Source of the DNA: a virus
Taxonomy: Duplodnaviria; Caudoviricetes
Length of the DNA: 57,851 nt
Reading direction: 5' to 3' (one strand)
Virus record (IMG/VR): IMGVR_UViG_3300027840_000002
Span: 1-57,851 of that record
The position numbers were made by a program, and so were the translations under genes. Every line of letters starts with the position of its first letter. Position 1 is the stretch's first letter. Below are positions 4,273 to 36,196 of this stretch, in pieces. The notes under the pieces were generated by a model, which made no database searches, was not told where the DNA came from, and worked only from the letters and a program-made list of their open reading frames with translations.

Positions 4273-4674
4273 ATGAATGACTCACAACTACACCAGCAAA
4301 TCGGGCGTCTCACAGAAGCGGTAGAAACCCAGTCAAGTATTACGCGGGAGCTATCGCATAAAATGACAACTATCGGTGATAAGGTCGAACAGGTTGACCG
4401 AAAATTATCGGAAATGTCATCAAGCATGGTGACAAAAGAAAGCCTGCGATCGGCGGGTATAGATCTGATGAGGCCAGAAGAACATCACGCTGACATGACC
4501 TGGGTCAGAAATAAACGCATTGCATCTGAAACGCGCAAGCCTGTTTATTCTCATGCTATTAAAGCTATTGCCGCAGCTGTAGCGATCGCGGTCGGAGCAT
4601 GGTTATGGCAGGCATTCACCACACAGTTAAGTAAAGATGTTCGAGTGGAAATCCATAATGAACAAAGTAAATAA
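4273..4674 (+). CDS. Membrane protein heading the lysis cassette (holin/antiholin candidate)
   Basis: Coiled-coil-like N-terminus and one C-terminal hydrophobic helix (AIAAAVAIAVGAWLWQAF); overlaps the endolysin start. Start choice is uncertain. Confidence 0.5.
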   Translation: MNDSQLHQQIGRLTEAVETQSSITRELSHKMTTIGDKVEQVDRKLSEMSSSMVTKESLRSAGIDLMRPEEHHADMTWVRNKRIASETRKPVYSHAIKAIAAAVAIAVGAWLWQAFTTQLSKDVRVEIHNEQSK

Positions 4675-5203
4675 ACGTGTAATAGCTGTACTGTTACTTG
4701 CAATCCCTGCCGTTGAGGGTTTGCAACAGAGCGTATATAAAGACCAGGGTGGCGTACCGACTGTATGCAGTGGTGTGACGGGTGCTAATATCAAGATGGG
4801 TATGACCTTCACTGAGAAACAGTGTCGTGATATGAATCTGCAGGCGATACTGAGCCATAGTAAACCGCTTGAAAAAATACCCCATCAGTTACCTGACAGG
4901 GTTAATGTTGCGTTCGGCAGTTGGCTTTATCAGTACGGGGAAACTAATTTCAATAGTAGCACTGCTAAAAAGTATCTCAGTCAGAATCGTCTGAAAGACG
5001 CTTGTGATGAAATTCTTAAATGGCGATTTACGCGTGTGAATGGCGTGAAAGTTGACTGTTCAATAAAGTCCAGCCGTTGTGGCGGGGTATGGACACGTGC
5101 ACAGAACAATAACCAGCTGTGCCTGGGTAAAATTAGCGTTGATCAGTATCTGCAACGCATTGGTGCGGAGCCATTAAAATATGACGGTGAGTACACCAAT
5201 TAA
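4658..5203 (+). CDS. SAR endolysin, GH24 phage lysozyme
   Basis: Basic then hydrophobic N-terminus (KVNKRVIAVLLLAIPAV) followed by the E-x8-D-x5-T catalytic triad (EGLQQSVYKDQGGVPT). Confidence 0.9.
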   Translation: MNKVNKRVIAVLLLAIPAVEGLQQSVYKDQGGVPTVCSGVTGANIKMGMTFTEKQCRDMNLQAILSHSKPLEKIPHQLPDRVNVAFGSWLYQYGETNFNSSTAKKYLSQNRLKDACDEILKWRFTRVNGVKVDCSIKSSRCGGVWTRAQNNNQLCLGKISVDQYLQRIGAEPLKYDGEYTN

Positions 5204-31888: not shown

Positions 31889-34546
31889 ATGTCTGTTACC
31901 GATTACCGTACCGTTTCAAGTTCCAATCCCGCCACCCTGGTTGCTGAGGTGAAAAAACTCATTGCTGCAGGGTGGCAACCTCTGTCCGGACACGTCGCCG
32001 GTTCATACAGCGGATCTTCAAAATTTTCGCAGGTCATGGTGAAAGGATCGGGTACATCGTATACCGATTACAATCTTCTTTATTCGTCAAGCGAAACTGT
32101 TCTCAATGACCAGGTTACGGCAGCGATCGCTACCGGGTGGGATGTATTACCGGGTGGTGTGGGCAGTGCGTCATCACACAGTCTTCTTTGTCAGCCTATG
32201 ATTAAAGGTACAGGAGTTGTAGCCGGTTCAGGTCTGCAGCCATCAAATAACCTTTCTGACGTACCAAACAAAACTACAGCGTTAGTGAATCTGAACGCTA
32301 TGAGTAAATCAGATGTGGACGGTGTTGCGAGTTTTGCAGATCTGCGCACCCGTCAGCCACGTTATGCCGGCGAACGTGTTATGCTTCGCGAATACAACGC
32401 TGGTGCGAGTCGTTTAACAGGTGGCGGCTGGTTTGTTGGTTATCTTACCGCCCAGGCTGATGACGGTGGTTACATTGCATCATCCGGCGCAGCGTGGCAC
32501 TGGAAGCGACAGAAAGAACTTGCAGATCTGACTGTGAATGATTTCGGCGCGGTAAATGACGGTGTGACAGATGCTGGTCCGGCATTCAAGCGTATGTATG
32601 AATTCCTTTTCGGGTCTTTCGCGCGCGGATTGTCCGGATCGCTTTCTCCAACGTTATCCGTACAGTTTGAAGCTGGTACGTATTTTATTTCGCCACTTGA
32701 TTTACGCGGCTACGGATCTCCTGTACCAAACAATGCCGCTGATGCTGCGCAAAACCCATCAGGTTTTTATGCGGCAGGTCACTTCCGTATGTCGGGTCCG
32801 CGCTGTCAGTTCGGTAAACAGATTTCCACGACGATCGTTTCCGATAAATCTGATACTCCGGTATTTCGCATCAATCACCGTTACTGGACGGTGCACGGCA
32901 TTAACTGGAATGGACAGCAGACCGTACAACGTAACGTTTACAGTGCCGATACGAATCCTACCGGTACGAATATGCTGATCGGCGCTACGCAGGGTGTGTT
33001 TAACGATACGGCCAGCAATAAGCAGCCTTTCATGAAGAATGACTGTCCAACAGGTTGCTTTGCTAACGTAAGCTGTGTCAATGCTCAGGATACCGGGTCG
33101 TATACCTTTTATTATCTTGACAGCCTTGACAGCCATTTCGACCAGGTTTATTCACAACGTACAGCTGGTCCTTTCCTTCAGGTTGGCTGGTCGGATCCTA
33201 ACAAAGTATTTTACGGGAAATGGGACCACTCGACGGCTATCAAACTGAGTAACTTCAATTTCCAGTTTGCTATGGCTCCGGCGTTCTGGATCCCGCGTCA
33301 CGGTCAGGGAATCATTGATAACGGATGGATTGAACATGGAAACGTACCGTTCGATATTAACAATGGACAATGGAACATTAATATGCTGTCCATTGAAAGC
33401 TGTACTAAAAATGCGGTAGCCTGGAACCGCCGTCTGATCATCGATACACTGTCTGGTCCGACAGGTAACACTATCGATATGACTACGGGTCCGAGCGATC
33501 CAGCATGGCCAAGTTATCCGCTGAATCCGGACGGTAGTACTATCACAGCTTTCCAGTCTGCGTACGAACTGGGTAGTTCACGCCAGGAGGCTTATGCAAC
33601 GGTGTTTGATAACCCGCTCAAGGCGCGCTGGTACACCGGCGTGATTCGCGGTACAAATAATACTGCCAGCCCTGTGTGGATGAACATCGGTTCGTTCTTT
33701 ACGCCTGCCGTTGGTGGCAGCTGGGAAATTGAAATCATTTGCCGCAATGGATTTTCATCACTCGGTAGTGCACCGCTGGCTGTAAATGCCGACCGCACAC
33801 CGGGTAAGACAATAATTAACGTCCAGCGCGGTCAGGCCACCTCACCGGCTATAAGCATGCATCATTTCGGTCACACCGGTGTACTTACAGCACAATACCA
33901 GGCTCAGGTTTACAATAATACCTTACCTGCGTTATGGGTTCAGCTTTCATCATACTGCGGTGAGTATGTTGTGAACGTCAAAGGTACAGGTATCACACGT
34001 CTTGAAGGAGGTGAGTGTTCACTATTTAACGTGAGCGGATTAACTCAGGCGTCATCACCGGGACTGCTCACGATTGAAGGACGTTTCTCACTGCATAACG
34101 GATCGGCAGGTATCGGTGCACAGGGTTCTGTTTTAGCTCTGCAGACAACGCGTGCAAGCGGTACCAGCGCACCGGTCACATCAGCGCCGATTCTGTACGC
34201 CAGGGTGAATATTAACGGTCAGGAAGTCGCTATGCCGATTTACGCCTACATTCCTCGTTTCACCACTAACACGCCGGCGACACTCACCGTTACTACCGGA
34301 TCTGCGCTGAGCCTCTCAGCGGTAGTCGTGGATGGTGTCAGTCAGCAGTGGCAGAAATCTACGGATAGTGGTGTCACCTGGAATAATATTTCCGGCGCGA
34401 CTAACACCACGTACAGTATCGCTGCGGCAGCAAGTGGTGACGCTGGTCAGTACAGATTGCTGGTGCGCGGTAACAACGGATCGGGCGGCGCGGGTGATAC
34501 TGCTGGATACGGTTATTCGAATGTCACGACCGTCACAGTGAATTAA
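31889..34546 (+). CDS. AmsF/WceF-like tailspike-fold exopolysaccharide-modifying protein with two N-terminal DUF1737-like repeats and a C-terminal Ig-like domain
   Basis: Repeated Y......L...V...IA.GW..GG; SFADLR..P...GERV.LREY..GGGWF..DDGG; DFGAVNDGVTD; WDHSTAI; QWQKSTD...DAGQYR. Confidence 0.7.
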   Translation: MSVTDYRTVSSSNPATLVAEVKKLIAAGWQPLSGHVAGSYSGSSKFSQVMVKGSGTSYTDYNLLYSSSETVLNDQVTAAIATGWDVLPGGVGSASSHSLLCQPMIKGTGVVAGSGLQPSNNLSDVPNKTTALVNLNAMSKSDVDGVASFADLRTRQPRYAGERVMLREYNAGASRLTGGGWFVGYLTAQADDGGYIASSGAAWHWKRQKELADLTVNDFGAVNDGVTDAGPAFKRMYEFLFGSFARGLSGSLSPTLSVQFEAGTYFISPLDLRGYGSPVPNNAADAAQNPSGFYAAGHFRMSGPRCQFGKQISTTIVSDKSDTPVFRINHRYWTVHGINWNGQQTVQRNVYSADTNPTGTNMLIGATQGVFNDTASNKQPFMKNDCPTGCFANVSCVNAQDTGSYTFYYLDSLDSHFDQVYSQRTAGPFLQVGWSDPNKVFYGKWDHSTAIKLSNFNFQFAMAPAFWIPRHGQGIIDNGWIEHGNVPFDINNGQWNINMLSIESCTKNAVAWNRRLIIDTLSGPTGNTIDMTTGPSDPAWPSYPLNPDGSTITAFQSAYELGSSRQEAYATVFDNPLKARWYTGVIRGTNNTASPVWMNIGSFFTPAVGGSWEIEIICRNGFSSLGSAPLAVNADRTPGKTIINVQRGQATSPAISMHHFGHTGVLTAQYQAQVYNNTLPALWVQLSSYCGEYVVNVKGTGITRLEGGECSLFNVSGLTQASSPGLLTIEGRFSLHNGSAGIGAQGSVLALQTTRASGTSAPVTSAPILYARVNINGQEVAMPIYAYIPRFTTNTPATLTVTTGSALSLSAVVVDGVSQQWQKSTDSGVTWNNISGATNTTYSIAAAASGDAGQYRLLVRGNNGSGGAGDTAGYGYSNVTTVTVN

Positions 34547-34559
34547 TTTATAAAAACTG

Positions 34560-34588
34560 TTGCGTGGCCGCAAGGATGGGGCTATATT
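34560..34588 (+). promoter_or_regulatory. Sigma70 promoter for the RNA cluster
   Basis: TTGCGT-17-TATATT with an A/T-rich upstream element. Confidence 0.75.
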
Positions 34589-34594
34589 CAGATT

Positions 34595-34930
34595 TAGGCG
34601 TAACAACGGGCATGTCGCCTTAGTAAATCGTCATAGGTGCAAGGTTAAAAACTTGTCGGTAGCTCCACGAAACGGAGCACACGACAGGTAAGAGCATTGA
34701 GAACCGCCGAGACTGCCACGAAAGTAGTAAGTCCGTGCAAACGTCATGCAGTGCTCTTTCCGTTGTGGTGAATGCGCAGGCTGATGCGCTAAGCGTGATG
34801 GTGACCGGGTTCCTAGGCCGGGTGAACAAATCGTGAGTATGTAAGCTCAACTGGTAGAGCTTCCGTCAAAGTCGGAGTGATCTGGTTCAACTCCAGAGAT
34901 ACAAGCAGGAGATCAGCTCCTGCCACCACA
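34595..34930 (+). ncRNA. Structured non-coding RNA(s), family not identified
   Basis: No plus-strand ORF of 60 aa or more. Multiple stems, a long stem 34680-34699/34749-34767, and a multibranch fold 34764-34930 with complementary loops. Confidence 0.65.
34835..34904 (+). pseudogene. tRNA-like element with degenerate acceptor stem
   Basis: D arm GCTC-AACTGGTA-GAGC, anticodon-like arm TTCCG-TCAAAGT-CGGAG, T arm TCTGG-TTCAACT-CCAGA. Only 4 acceptor pairs and no CCA. Confidence 0.6.
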
Positions 34931-34938
34931 CATTATTC

Positions 34939-35005
34939 GGCCCTTTAGCTCAGCGGTTAGTTCATAATCGCCAGGGCACTGGTTCAAATCCAGTAAGGGT
35001 CACCA
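34939..35005 (+). pseudogene. tRNA-Ile2/Met(CAT)-derived gene with ~9-nt internal deletion
   Basis: Intact acceptor GGCCCTT/AAGGGTC-ACCA, T arm and TTCATAA loop. The 3' D strand and 5' anticodon strand are missing (67 nt). Confidence 0.8.
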
Positions 35006-35009
35006 ATTT

Positions 35010-35032
35010 AGTCGGGAAACCGACTTTTTATT
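35010..35032 (+). terminator. Intrinsic terminator closing the RNA cluster
   Basis: AGTCGG-GAAA-CCGACT plus T run. Confidence 0.8.
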
Positions 35033-35069
35033 AAACGTAGTGTAAAATAATTGACAGGAGTGTATATAA

Positions 35070-36196
35070 ATGTTTAACATGACTCTTCAGGAACTGTATG
35101 AGTTTTTAAAAATAGAAGGTTGTGAACTTCGAATAGGATTCGACTATCCGCGAGTGAATGAACTAACTTTAACCTGGCTAAATAAAAATAATAATAAGCA
35201 GTTTTCACGCAGATTCAGCACGTTTGAACTCGAAATGATGCGTGTACCAGAAAGTATGCTTGTTTACGCAAGAAGTCAGGCTGAGGAGTGCTTAAAGTGA
35301 TTAAACTGATCATATTTTTACGTAACGCTATTTTTATAACCTCGTTTGCATACTTTGTGTTGATTGCGTTTATTGGAGTTATGTCTTTTGTGTCATGGGA
35401 TATAAACTTGATAATTGATATGTTCCAATCACTTACATGGTATGGTTTCAGGGTAACTTTTCTTTTTTCAGCATTGATAAGTGTGGTAGTTACATATGTC
35501 AAGTATGAGGGGTGGTAATGAAACGTATCCTGATTTTCATGCTGCTATTCATATCGTCGCCAGTTTTTGCCGATGGCAACGTTATGGACATATGGGTGAC
35601 GAAGTATGCGCTGACACGCGGCGTAGAGCAGCACAAAGCGAAAGTATTCAGTAATGGTAAGCTGGCCGTGGTGGACAACACTTACTACCGTAACAGCGAA
35701 TTCTGGTACACCGCAGAAGATGCGCGTAACCAGGCGATCAAAATGAAACAGCAGCGAATCGACACACTGATCCGCGAACTGAAACGTCTACAGAGTAAGG
35801 AATTCAAATAATGCGTATTCGTCGTGAAAGTCTTGAAAAAACCACAGGTATGTCACCGGTCGATGTTCAGACTTACCTTAGCCGTGCCGCACGCATGGCG
35901 ATCGGTGAGGGTAAAAAAGTTGTACGCATCAGCCGCGTCTCTACAGATACGAAACTGCGTACCCGGCGCACCATTGATGAACTGGTGATATCATGATTAA
36001 GAAACGTCCCATTAAAGCTACCGATCTCCACGATGGTTTGCTGATTGATTTTGATGGTGCGGAACCAGCTATCATCCGTGATGTTCTTATCGGTAAAAAC
36101 ATGGTTGAATTCACGGCGAATGGTACAAAATTCGCTGTTGAACATGATGAACAGCTGGTGCAGGTTACCAGACTCACACTGGTGTGCGGTCAATGA
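35070..36196 (+). CDS. Five small hypothetical genes (35070-35300, ~35297-35518 membrane, 35518-35811 with signal-like N-terminus, 35811-35996, 35993-36196)
   Basis: Tightly coupled ORFs. Confidence 0.65.

Follow-up and report, generated by a model that had tools for sequence, protein, structure and literature searches.

In this study, we analysed a locus in the window, that is, in the complete metagenome-derived record IMGVR_UViG_3300027840_000002 of a virus of the Caudoviricetes (57,851 bases). The locus is a non-coding RNA unit at 34597-35033 on the plus (+) strand, and its centre, 34764-34930, belongs to a large RNA family in which a small conserved three-way junction, hereafter the scaffold, carries exchangeable sequence, hereafter the cargo. 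Its 5′ neighbour is an 885-aa tailspike/depolymerase-like gene (31889-34546; PHROG 4250, E = 1e-168), and on the 3′ side follows a series of small + strand open reading frames (ORFs) from 35070. A PHROGs scan of 56 ORFs of the window detected a siphovirus-type structural set and a DNA polymerase, a primase and helicases of the phage's own, and among these ORFs neither a repressor nor an integrase; the genome is lytic-looking. The features of the locus are listed here; coordinates refer to the window, and alignment A1 and covariance model R1 are described below.

34560-34588 (+): promoter-like site proposed by an initial annotation; TTGCGT, 17 nt, TATATT; inferred and weak
34597-34659 (+): upstream conserved module preceding the scaffold, also present upstream in L001, L003, L004, L006, L055 and L076
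34662-34678 (+): 5′ hairpin with a 5-bp stem and the 7-nt loop ACGAAAC, from sequence and fold
34680-34767 (+): 5′ domain, a long interrupted stem (34680-34699/34749-34767) around variable insert 1 (34700-34748), from A1 and fold
34764-34930 (+): core three-way junction (tRNA-shaped scaffold), from R1 and pair counts
34764-34770 with 34924-34930 (+): closing stem, TGTGGTG/CACCACA
3 nt between closing stem and hairpin A (+): linker AAT of the core junction
34774-34789 (+): hairpin A, GCGC-AGGCTGAT-GCGC, conserved in sequence
34790-34904 (+): cargo (insert 2), a hairpin region and, 3′ of it, a degenerate tRNA-like cloverleaf (34836-34904), Rfam tRNA model below gathering
34905-34923 (+): hairpin B, with covarying stem
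34780-34785 with 34912-34917 (+): kissing loops, loop A GCTGAT with loop B ATCAGC, from complementarity and covariation
34939-35005 (+): tRNA-like unit that encodes CCA and has a shortened anticodon arm; 34 bits on the Rfam tRNA model, above the gathering threshold of 29
35010-35033 (+): intrinsic terminator-like hairpin with T run, from a consensus scan and also in the predicted fold

The initial annotation, made from the sequence alone, had proposed a kissing-loop scaffold that encloses a tRNA-like insert between a promoter and a terminator, with putative processing by RNase III and a putative regulatory or decoy role. Both copies of CCACGAAA (at 34665 and 34716), the long stem, the closing stem, hairpins A and B, their complementary loops and the overlap of the two large stems at 34764-34767 were found in the sequence at the positions given there. 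The terminator bounding the region (35010-35032) is also listed by the consensus scan, with the hairpin proper at 35010-35025 and the T run after it. The promoter has 3/6 and 5/6 hexamer matches, which leaves it under the scan threshold and unlisted; it is plausible but weak. The absence of a plus-strand ORF holds for long ORFs but not for short ones, as mechanical ORF calls of 43 aa (34560-34691) and 33 aa (34735-34836) exist. Directly after the terminator lies the sole consensus promoter-like site of a 1-kb scan (35051-35080; TTGACA, 18 nt, TAACAT), which overlaps the start of a 76-aa ORF at 35070.

Folding of the + strand gave z = −4.15, and none of 100 shuffles folded as well, compared with z = −2.77 for the − strand. 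The 5′ domain folded alone reached −34.2 kcal/mol (z = −3.95). Just 5′ of the scaffold, many loci have the hairpin with the ACGAAAC loop again, its stem being different (e.g. GCCAC/GTGGC) and its loop constant, and the upstream region 34559-34699 is covered by wastewater contigs.

Covariation, shape and distribution of the scaffold

For the analysis of covariation, the pairing written down from the window was applied to alignment A1 with 54 sequences. In total, 96.8% of the cells pair, compared with 32-58% after shifting the 3′ partners by 1-3 columns; 10 pairs vary on both sides, and 0/500 shuffles attain the observed values. The long interrupted stem likewise has 96.8% of its cells paired over 14 pairs, with both-side changes in six of them, and its inner part is exchanged in a compensating way (GAGCA/TGCTC to CTGC/GCAG and others). 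Hairpin B occurs as GCCGG/CCGGC, GCAGG/CCTGC and GACGG/CCGTC. In a second alignment, A2, with 51 genome sequences, 97.9% of the cells pair (28-49% when slid), and both-side changes were counted in 129 cells vs 35.5 in shuffles; the ends of its closing stem were set by pair extension, so that the 99.8% pairing of this stem is partly given by construction. The six pairs between the loops are formed in 92.6% (A1) and 98.4% (A2) of cases, and one locus (L063) has compensating changes at two adjacent loop-loop pairs. Diverged tandem copies show compensating changes in the stem of hairpin A around an unchanged loop. At least five consecutive pairs of the closing stem were found in 81/91 loci, namely those of 120 in which a fuzzy pattern placed hairpin B, and in 0-3/91 when the partner was slid by 1-3 bases.

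Thus, judged from these comparisons of sequences, covariation supports every helix and the loop-loop pairing, and the kissing-loop scaffold of the initial annotation is borne out by homologues in both alignments and by a fold that exceeds shuffled sequences. U-G and G-U pairs are frequent (e.g. 35/54 at one position of A1). As a U-G pair corresponds to A-C on the other strand, the + strand is the folded one, and motifs restricted to one strand as well as tRNA genes on the same strand also indicate a + strand RNA. We are almost certain that this is a real, conserved and structured RNA family read from the + strand.

The order of the parts is that of a tRNA: an acceptor-like closing stem, a 3-nt linker, hairpin A in the place of the D arm, the cargo arm where the anticodon and variable arms would be, and hairpin B in the place of the T arm. 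Instead of the tRNA elbow, loops A and B form a Watson-Crick kissing helix of 5-6 bp. The conserved core comprises ~55 nucleotides with a swappable arm; its conserved bases are mostly in helices, and only ~5 bases of the junction are unpaired. In the enteric form, the closing stem and the stem of hairpin B make up a 12-bp stack. The minimal element (L159) has 72 nt and the dimensions of a cloverleaf: its closing stem has 8 pairs, an 8-nt loop caps its 4-bp arm, the central hairpin is short and the arm by the 3′ strand has 5 bp.

In BLAST searches against GenBank phages, 40-50 nt near 34749-34793 are conserved at 94-100% identity, while the flanking sequence is unconserved. The hosts of these phages are Escherichia, Klebsiella, Erwinia, Hafnia, Enterobacter, Salmonella, Cronobacter and Edwardsiella, and phages Bas77, Bas78 and Bas79 carry the element. 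Among complete E. coli genomes, 60/5426 contain a match, the replicons being chromosomes as well as plasmids (94-113 kb). At least 120 IMG/VR contigs share an exact 21-mer from the core, and lining up the IMG/VR loci revealed three conserved segments with two sites of unrelated sequence between them.

The 21-mer of hairpin A was found in at least 120 species genomes, mostly of Gamma- and Betaproteobacteria and in prophage settings. The isolates include Enterobacterales (Kosakonia, Pantoea, Rahnella, Erwinia, Yersinia and others), many Pseudomonas, further Halomonas, Chromohalobacter, Marinobacterium, Dyella and Pseudoxanthomonas, and the Betaproteobacteria Massilia, Pandoraea, Caballeronia, Chitiniphilus, Comamonas, Achromobacter, Janthinobacterium and Herminiimonas. 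The feature had been expected in enterobacterial phages; it is found there, but the core extends far beyond them across both classes. Labels outside Proteobacteria (Flavobacterium, Coriobacteriia, Acidobacteriota, Phycisphaerales, Geobacteraceae) were distrusted, as all of them are metagenome bins and at least one is mis-binned. This one, labelled Geobacteraceae, holds a contig of 57,909 nt (L156; DAINBV010000030.1) with the same element and the same downstream ORF (MFNMTLQELYEF...), and it is probably the same phage as the window, binned with a bacterium.

All genome loci keep one order of parts. The closing stem, whose sequence is free, leads through the pairs U-A and G-C to the linker AAU; hairpin A comes next, then an insert (19 to ~170 nt) and finally hairpin B. 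The window has the same motif with closing stem, UG/CA, AAU, hairpin A, insert, hairpin B and complementary loops. Covariance model R1, built from A2, matches the window at 34763-34931 (64.6 bits, E = 7e-17, model positions 1-113) and gave no further credible match in it. R1 matches 100/100 of the first 100 genome loci, 51 of which are its training rows, and also picks up extra diverged tandem copies. At E ≤ 1e-4, it was found in 15/151 species genomes in the family around an Erwinia genome and in 7/151 across the phylum; both counts include the genome at the centre of the sample, and as 24 candidates were scored per genome they are lower bounds. Three tandem scaffolds with decreasing similarity to the model lie within ~800 nt of one locus (L225, 6533-7344), and one genome at the level of Enterobacteriaceae (G128) carries seven copies along its chromosome.

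The initial annotation had not assigned a family, and none was found by us. Of the 4227 models of Rfam 15, none reached gathering level over the scaffold, whether in the window or in 10 loci, and relaxed scans at E up to 10, 1 or 0.5 gave no match to it either; the Rfam scans took in the window, 30 viral loci, a Pseudomonas phage, a cyanophage and a Pseudomonas genome locus. Known self-cleaving ribozymes, ROOL, GOLLD, Y RNA/YrlA, tmRNA and the other models of this release do not fit the scaffold. A literature search by concept and by sequence found no description of it. Passages of the main text on a set of 10,006 candidate viral RNAs published in 2023 do not mention it, and the set may list it anonymously in the supplements (PMC10690425).

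Cargo modules, tRNA-like units and genomic surroundings

The two insertion sites hold unrelated sequences. Clustering of the inserts of 117 viral elements gave 50 clusters for insert 1 and 57 for insert 2, and modules of either site are combined with differing modules of the other, which indicates free reshuffling. The earlier idea of scaffolds with variable payloads is thus strongly supported by conserved, covarying arms around diverse inserts. Some cargo modules are common to Pseudomonas, enteric and other hosts. The cargo of the window has a relative in locus L042, and its first half resembles sequences of a Pseudomonas phage and a cyanophage, in both of which tRNA-like units follow.

Two modules resemble parts of the host translation apparatus. 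One insert-2 module, present in 8 loci, reproduces helix 11 of E. coli 16S rRNA (positions 243-282) in sense orientation with 85-90% identity, and the Rfam model of bacterial SSU rRNA aligns to it at 237-283 (E = 2e-5 and 3e-4). One insert-1 module contains a 13-mer that is present, exactly or as a one-base variant, in 20/121 arrays, and neither in 800 kb of flanking sequence nor on the reverse strand. The form in 12 of these arrays equals the anticodon stem-loop shared by four tRNA-Met genes of E. coli, three in tandem beside amiC and one before rimP, namely the initiator tRNA genes metZWV and metY. General mimicry of rRNA was considered and rejected: in BLAST against one E. coli rrn operon, the arrays matched through the helix-11 module (8 arrays) and a single tRNA-Trp-like piece and in no other way.

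Apart from the scaffold, the RNA unit of the window contains two tRNA-like units, at 34836-34904 and 34939-35002, which are the sole Rfam matches in the region; ARAGORN calls no tRNA gene anywhere in the window. The cloverleaf noticed earlier inside the fold is located at 34836-34904 but scores 25.3 bits on the Rfam tRNA model (RF00005), under the gathering threshold of 29 bits, and its anticodon loop is aligned with 5 nt compared with 7 in the model. The second unit had been overlooked. It is followed by CCA, its anticodon arm is cut to 11 nt, and together with the CCA (34939-35005) it is 75% identical to an annotated tRNA of phages P1 and P7. Related contigs from other samples have nine extra bases in this arm, at 34960-34961, that are absent in the window. 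The CAT triplet is kept in the remnant of the anticodon loop. The unit is probably a deletion derivative of a tRNA with CAU anticodon, and either a decayed or a deliberately shortened tRNA.

Other loci also place the element among tRNA genes. ARAGORN tRNAs lie within ~1 kb in 19/122 viral contexts, and 37/37 of these tRNAs are on the strand of the element. In a Massilia locus (L128), a tRNA-Gly ends at 4558, the scaffold occupies 4558-4664 and a tRNA-Pro starts at 4720, 56 nt later. Such same-strand tRNAs and the tandem scaffolds also support the payload idea of the initial annotation. T-arm-like hairpins, counted including those of genuine tRNAs, occur at 0.42 per kb in the arrays vs 0.024 per kb outside (~18x), with none on the reverse strand. 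In 35/85 genome elements, the closing stem is followed by N-C-C, while CC at later offsets is found in only 4-7/85. A single odd case is L231 (4397-4485), where ARAGORN reports a 'tRNA-Leu (aag)' consisting of the 5′ half of the scaffold and a T arm inside the cargo, and therefore the scaffold can yield false tRNA calls.

Beyond tRNA genes, contexts varied, also in the PHROG annotation of the neighbours at 13 loci. Two enteric prophages have the element behind the Q antiterminator gene and a terminator, and ahead of holin, endolysin and spanin; lambdoid phages keep tRNA genes in the slot between Q and holin, and whether such tRNAs are excised from the late message is unsettled, both according to passages of a paper on phage L (PMC8022706). 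The Pas sRNAs of the Q-holin region, as far as described in excerpts of PMC13192938, are other sRNAs and not the scaffold. In one Pseudomonas locus, the element is directly 5′ of a holin/antiholin gene, and in other Pseudomonas loci and in Burkholderiales it lies between a CI-like repressor gene and recombination genes. An intrinsic terminator ending ~10 nt 5′ of the element recurs in enteric and Pseudomonas copies, and therefore many copies depend on antiterminated transcription. Many non-enteric copies are immediately followed by a ribosome-binding site and an ORF. The Bas77 copy runs antisense to the structural genes around it and carries a separate terminator. No constant protein partner was detected, as the ORFs 3′ of 65 genome elements have no common family.

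Several further observations were made around the element. Opposite the RNA element of Bas77, a 160-aa 'hypothetical protein' is annotated (Bas77_0057; PQ850598.1; L001, 2753-3235, − strand), which is probably a spurious gene call, as are probably the 'hypothetical protein' annotations at the matching site of several Klebsiella phages. In L017, an int-alpA RNA (264-330, − strand; RF02996, 43.7 bits, above gathering) lies directly 3′ of the scaffold on the same strand; it is a separate motif and thus a second structured RNA in the same unit. Downstream of many scaffolds (L002, L010, L037), 3′ modules of 60-130 nt with a strong terminator recur in few families; weak isrJ-like and DicF-like matches occur in them, and they may be separate sRNAs of the Hfq type. 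Sub-threshold matches to the tmRNA model (E 0.08-0.3) in modules upstream of the scaffold of L055, L076, L035 and L008 may be due to chance. The frameshift element of IS1222 (L002, 5972-6089, − strand; 156.6 bits) ~1.2 kb from the scaffold marks an insertion sequence in that prophage region.

Possible function and alternative explanations

Our preferred explanation, held tentatively and slightly below even chances, is that of a tRNA-shaped carrier, which is excised by host tRNA-processing enzymes and presents its swappable cargo in trans. It was derived from the cloverleaf layout and size, the loop-loop helix at the site of the D/T contact, the position in tRNA slots and the N-C-C trailer. Indirect signs of an RNase P substrate are this trailer, the 12-bp stack of the enteric form and the copy that abuts tRNA-Gly. 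The unit, including the copy in the window, would be transcribed together with phage tRNAs, with late genes or at the head of phage operons. Host enzymes of tRNA processing would then excise it, among them RNase P on the 5′ side of the closing stem, and the released RNA would persist as a stable particle that shows its cargo to host factors. The cargos would be exchangeable modules, some of them copies of pieces of the host translation apparatus, and might act as decoys or ligands for RNA-binding or RNA-cutting host proteins in the phage-host conflict. For this last step, a decoy or anti-defence role, we see a rather low probability; the resemblance of two cargos to 16S helix 11 and to the anticodon arm of initiator tRNA is the backing of the decoy idea and is suggestive.

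The comparison with known RNAs bears on the carrier in both directions. The scaffold resembles tRNA (RF00005) in its closing stem of ~7 bp, the 4-bp arm with 8-nt loop, the central arm, the 5-bp arm by the 3′ strand and the contact of the two outer loops, and further in its occurrence in same-strand tRNA arrays, one copy abutting tRNA-Gly, and in its N-C-C trailer. The CC of a 3′ CCA in precursor tRNAs is paired by bacterial RNase P RNA. The scaffold differs from tRNA in having no match to the tRNA model, a Watson-Crick kissing helix at the elbow, no T-loop consensus and a central arm that can be 19 to ~170 nt of unrelated sequence. YrlA, a bacterial Y RNA that occurs in some phages, consists of a tRNA-like domain, in which canonical D and T loops are kept, and a Ro-binding stem. 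It shares with the present unit the modular joining of a tRNA-like domain to a long stem, but the scaffold has no Rfam match to Y RNA/YrlA at E up to 10, and no rsr-like or rtcB-like gene was detected with PHROGs among the 56 scanned ORFs of the window. In the engineered 'tRNA scaffold' for E. coli, a payload replaces the anticodon arm, and tRNA enzymes process and stabilise the product. The payload concept is the same; that construct, however, is synthetic with a genuine tRNA frame, whereas the present element is natural with a conserved frame of its own. All in all, the scaffold acts most like tRNAs or tRNA-like RNAs and like the c4/CI RNAs discussed below, yet neither the tRNA nor the C4 model matches it. 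It is a tRNA-like phage RNA of unusually wide spread, and its modular design has, to our knowledge, no described natural counterpart.

Several results weigh against the carrier. The tRNA model does not match 34764-34930 as a unit, the minimal 72-nt L159 has no match to it at E up to 10, and no tRNA consensus is seen in the T-like loop of 8-9 nt; that RNase P recognises the element is for these reasons an assumption. The N-C-C trailer is absent in the window, where CATT follows the stem, is present in only 11/97 elements of the viral set and is missing in most enteric copies. Concerning the cargo, most modules resemble nothing identified, and the two commonest ones match nothing in E. coli chromosomes beyond prophage copies (1 and 2 copies in 5426 genomes). 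Hairpins of a generic anticodon-loop type show no enrichment (57 on the forward vs 89 on the reverse strand), and the 13-mer belongs to one module family, so that its match could be due to chance given the search space. The support from RNA libraries consists of one 275-nt contig of a related element in one transcriptome assembly, and that library could contain DNA. The sequencing runs that contain the window in full are DNA runs and may be its source. Wastewater 'RNA-Seq' runs have very high summed depth over 34742-34809, which probably reflects many phages sharing the core, sequenced as DNA; window parts left uncovered in these runs are uninformative. Finally, the closing-stem pairing in A2 is circular in part, with the slid-partner control as the fair test, and both locus sets were gathered by exact 21-mers, so that the invariance in them is partly built in.

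As an extension of the carrier, one can conceive a display cassette universal to phages of many Proteobacteria, excised by RNase P and stabilised by its kissing elbow, with decoy or aptamer cargos, the copies of the initiator-tRNA anticodon arm and of 16S helix 11 among them, that disarm RNA-targeting immunity or capture translation factors. We regard this as unlikely. The same holds for the related view, likewise doubtful, that it would be an RNA-level counterpart of protein anti-defence islands with cassette exchange at the conserved arms.

The alternative that survives best, although unlikely in our estimation, is that the conserved core itself is the working part, binds a highly conserved host machine (RNA polymerase, ribosome, RNase E or RNase P) and acts in cis on the transcript of the phage operon. 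Its role could then lie in processing, in stabilising the downstream message from the 5′ end or in antitermination as a put-like element, and the third arm would be a tolerated variable region. The extreme sequence conservation across Gamma- and Betaproteobacteria speaks for such a core. Its position at the head of operons, either between the late terminator and the lysis genes in enteric and Pseudomonas prophages or between the repressor region and the early recombination genes, the terminator ~10 nt upstream and the many non-enteric copies directly 5′ of a ribosome-binding site and an ORF are also consistent with it. Two arrangements do not agree: in Bas77 the element is on the strand opposite the flanking structural genes, with a terminator of its own, and in the window a terminator separates it from the next gene, which has a promoter-like site of its own. 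Moreover, the downstream ORFs share no family, and cargo modules that are conserved across genera and reshuffled are unexpected for an unconstrained arm.

Less probable still is that the loops pair between molecules and give dimers or larger RNA-only assemblies with the cargo arms outside. In phi29 pRNA, which is restricted to phi29-like phages, loop pairing between molecules leads to a ring on the portal. Like the scaffold, it is a phage RNA built on a three-way junction with two complementary, covarying loops; the present RNA, in contrast, occurs in unrelated phage types and at varied genome positions. ROOL and GOLLD RNAs are phage-linked, often located beside tRNA genes and of undefined function. 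They too are borne by phages and prophages and have kissing loops, but comprise several hundred nt with a large conserved body, unlike the ~55 conserved nt and the swappable arm of the scaffold, and they form homo-oligomers according to parts of PMC12286853. Covariation cannot separate pairing within from pairing between molecules, the 5-6 nt Watson-Crick loops are conserved beyond pairing needs, and tandem copies exist (three in L225, seven in one genome), all of which is compatible with assembly. Against this stand a geometry that fits the D-loop/T-loop contact of a single tRNA and the cloverleaf size of the 72-nt form.

An antisense immunity or regulatory RNA of the P1 c4 / P4 CI kind is very improbable. 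The c4 and P4 CI RNAs are cut from longer transcripts by RNase P. Those of P1/P7 and P4 (C4, RF01695) are phage-encoded and tRNA-like in shape, and combine a conserved frame with a variable specificity part, as does the present scaffold with its hypervariable part in temperate phages and near regulatory regions. The C4 model, however, has no match at E up to 10 in 34400-35200, and the scaffold differs in its far wider host range and far larger cargos. Complementary targets near the element are also missing: 4 complementary 12-mers were found in the window genome vs 3.1 expected from shuffles, and for 150 cargos and 4 kb of flanking sequence the longest complement averages 8.67 nt vs 8.66 nt for shuffled cargos. 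With complementarity at chance level in the window and the flanks, antisense regulation of the phage's own genes found no support; in addition, the lytic-looking window genome, with no repressor or integrase among the 56 scanned ORFs, does not suit an immunity RNA.

A similarly small probability is given to a new self-cleaving ribozyme or other catalytic RNA with the three-way junction and the loop-loop contact as core. A small core with variable stems, a loop-loop contact and a phage context are traits of hammerhead, twister-sister and pistol ribozymes, and the element shares all of these traits: its core is highly conserved, its variable stems are peripheral and its loop-loop contact is tertiary. 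The known ribozyme families, however, do not match, the conserved bases are mainly helical with ~5 unpaired in the junction, and CUGAU of loop A is engaged in pairing according to the covariation in L063. Decayed tRNA genes together with conserved DNA 'linker' sequences for mosaic recombination would explain the reshuffling of modules beside conserved segments, as from homologous recombination at conserved boundaries, and the resemblance of 34939-35002 to a tRNA deletion derivative, but this non-functional origin is already disfavoured and highly improbable, since compensating changes, G-U pairs and strand-specific motifs speak for selection on a folded + strand RNA and a near-invariant core across distant proteobacterial orders is unexpected for decay.

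Already for the annotation of phage genomes, R1 allows regions like this one to be labelled and spurious 'hypothetical protein' calls such as Bas77_0057 to be dropped. The element occurs in ~1 in 10 genomes of the enterobacterial family sample and ~1 in 25 of the proteobacterial phylum sample, and its small, near-invariant core should suit structural study. If it were only a processing or stability element, the conservation of this core across distant proteobacterial orders would still want an explanation. If the carrier explanation is true, the scaffold would be among the most widespread unnamed families of phage non-coding RNAs and a natural modular design that could be reused for stable RNA expression in bacteria, and its hypervariable cargos would represent a catalogue of RNA ligands shaped by the conflict between phages and their hosts.

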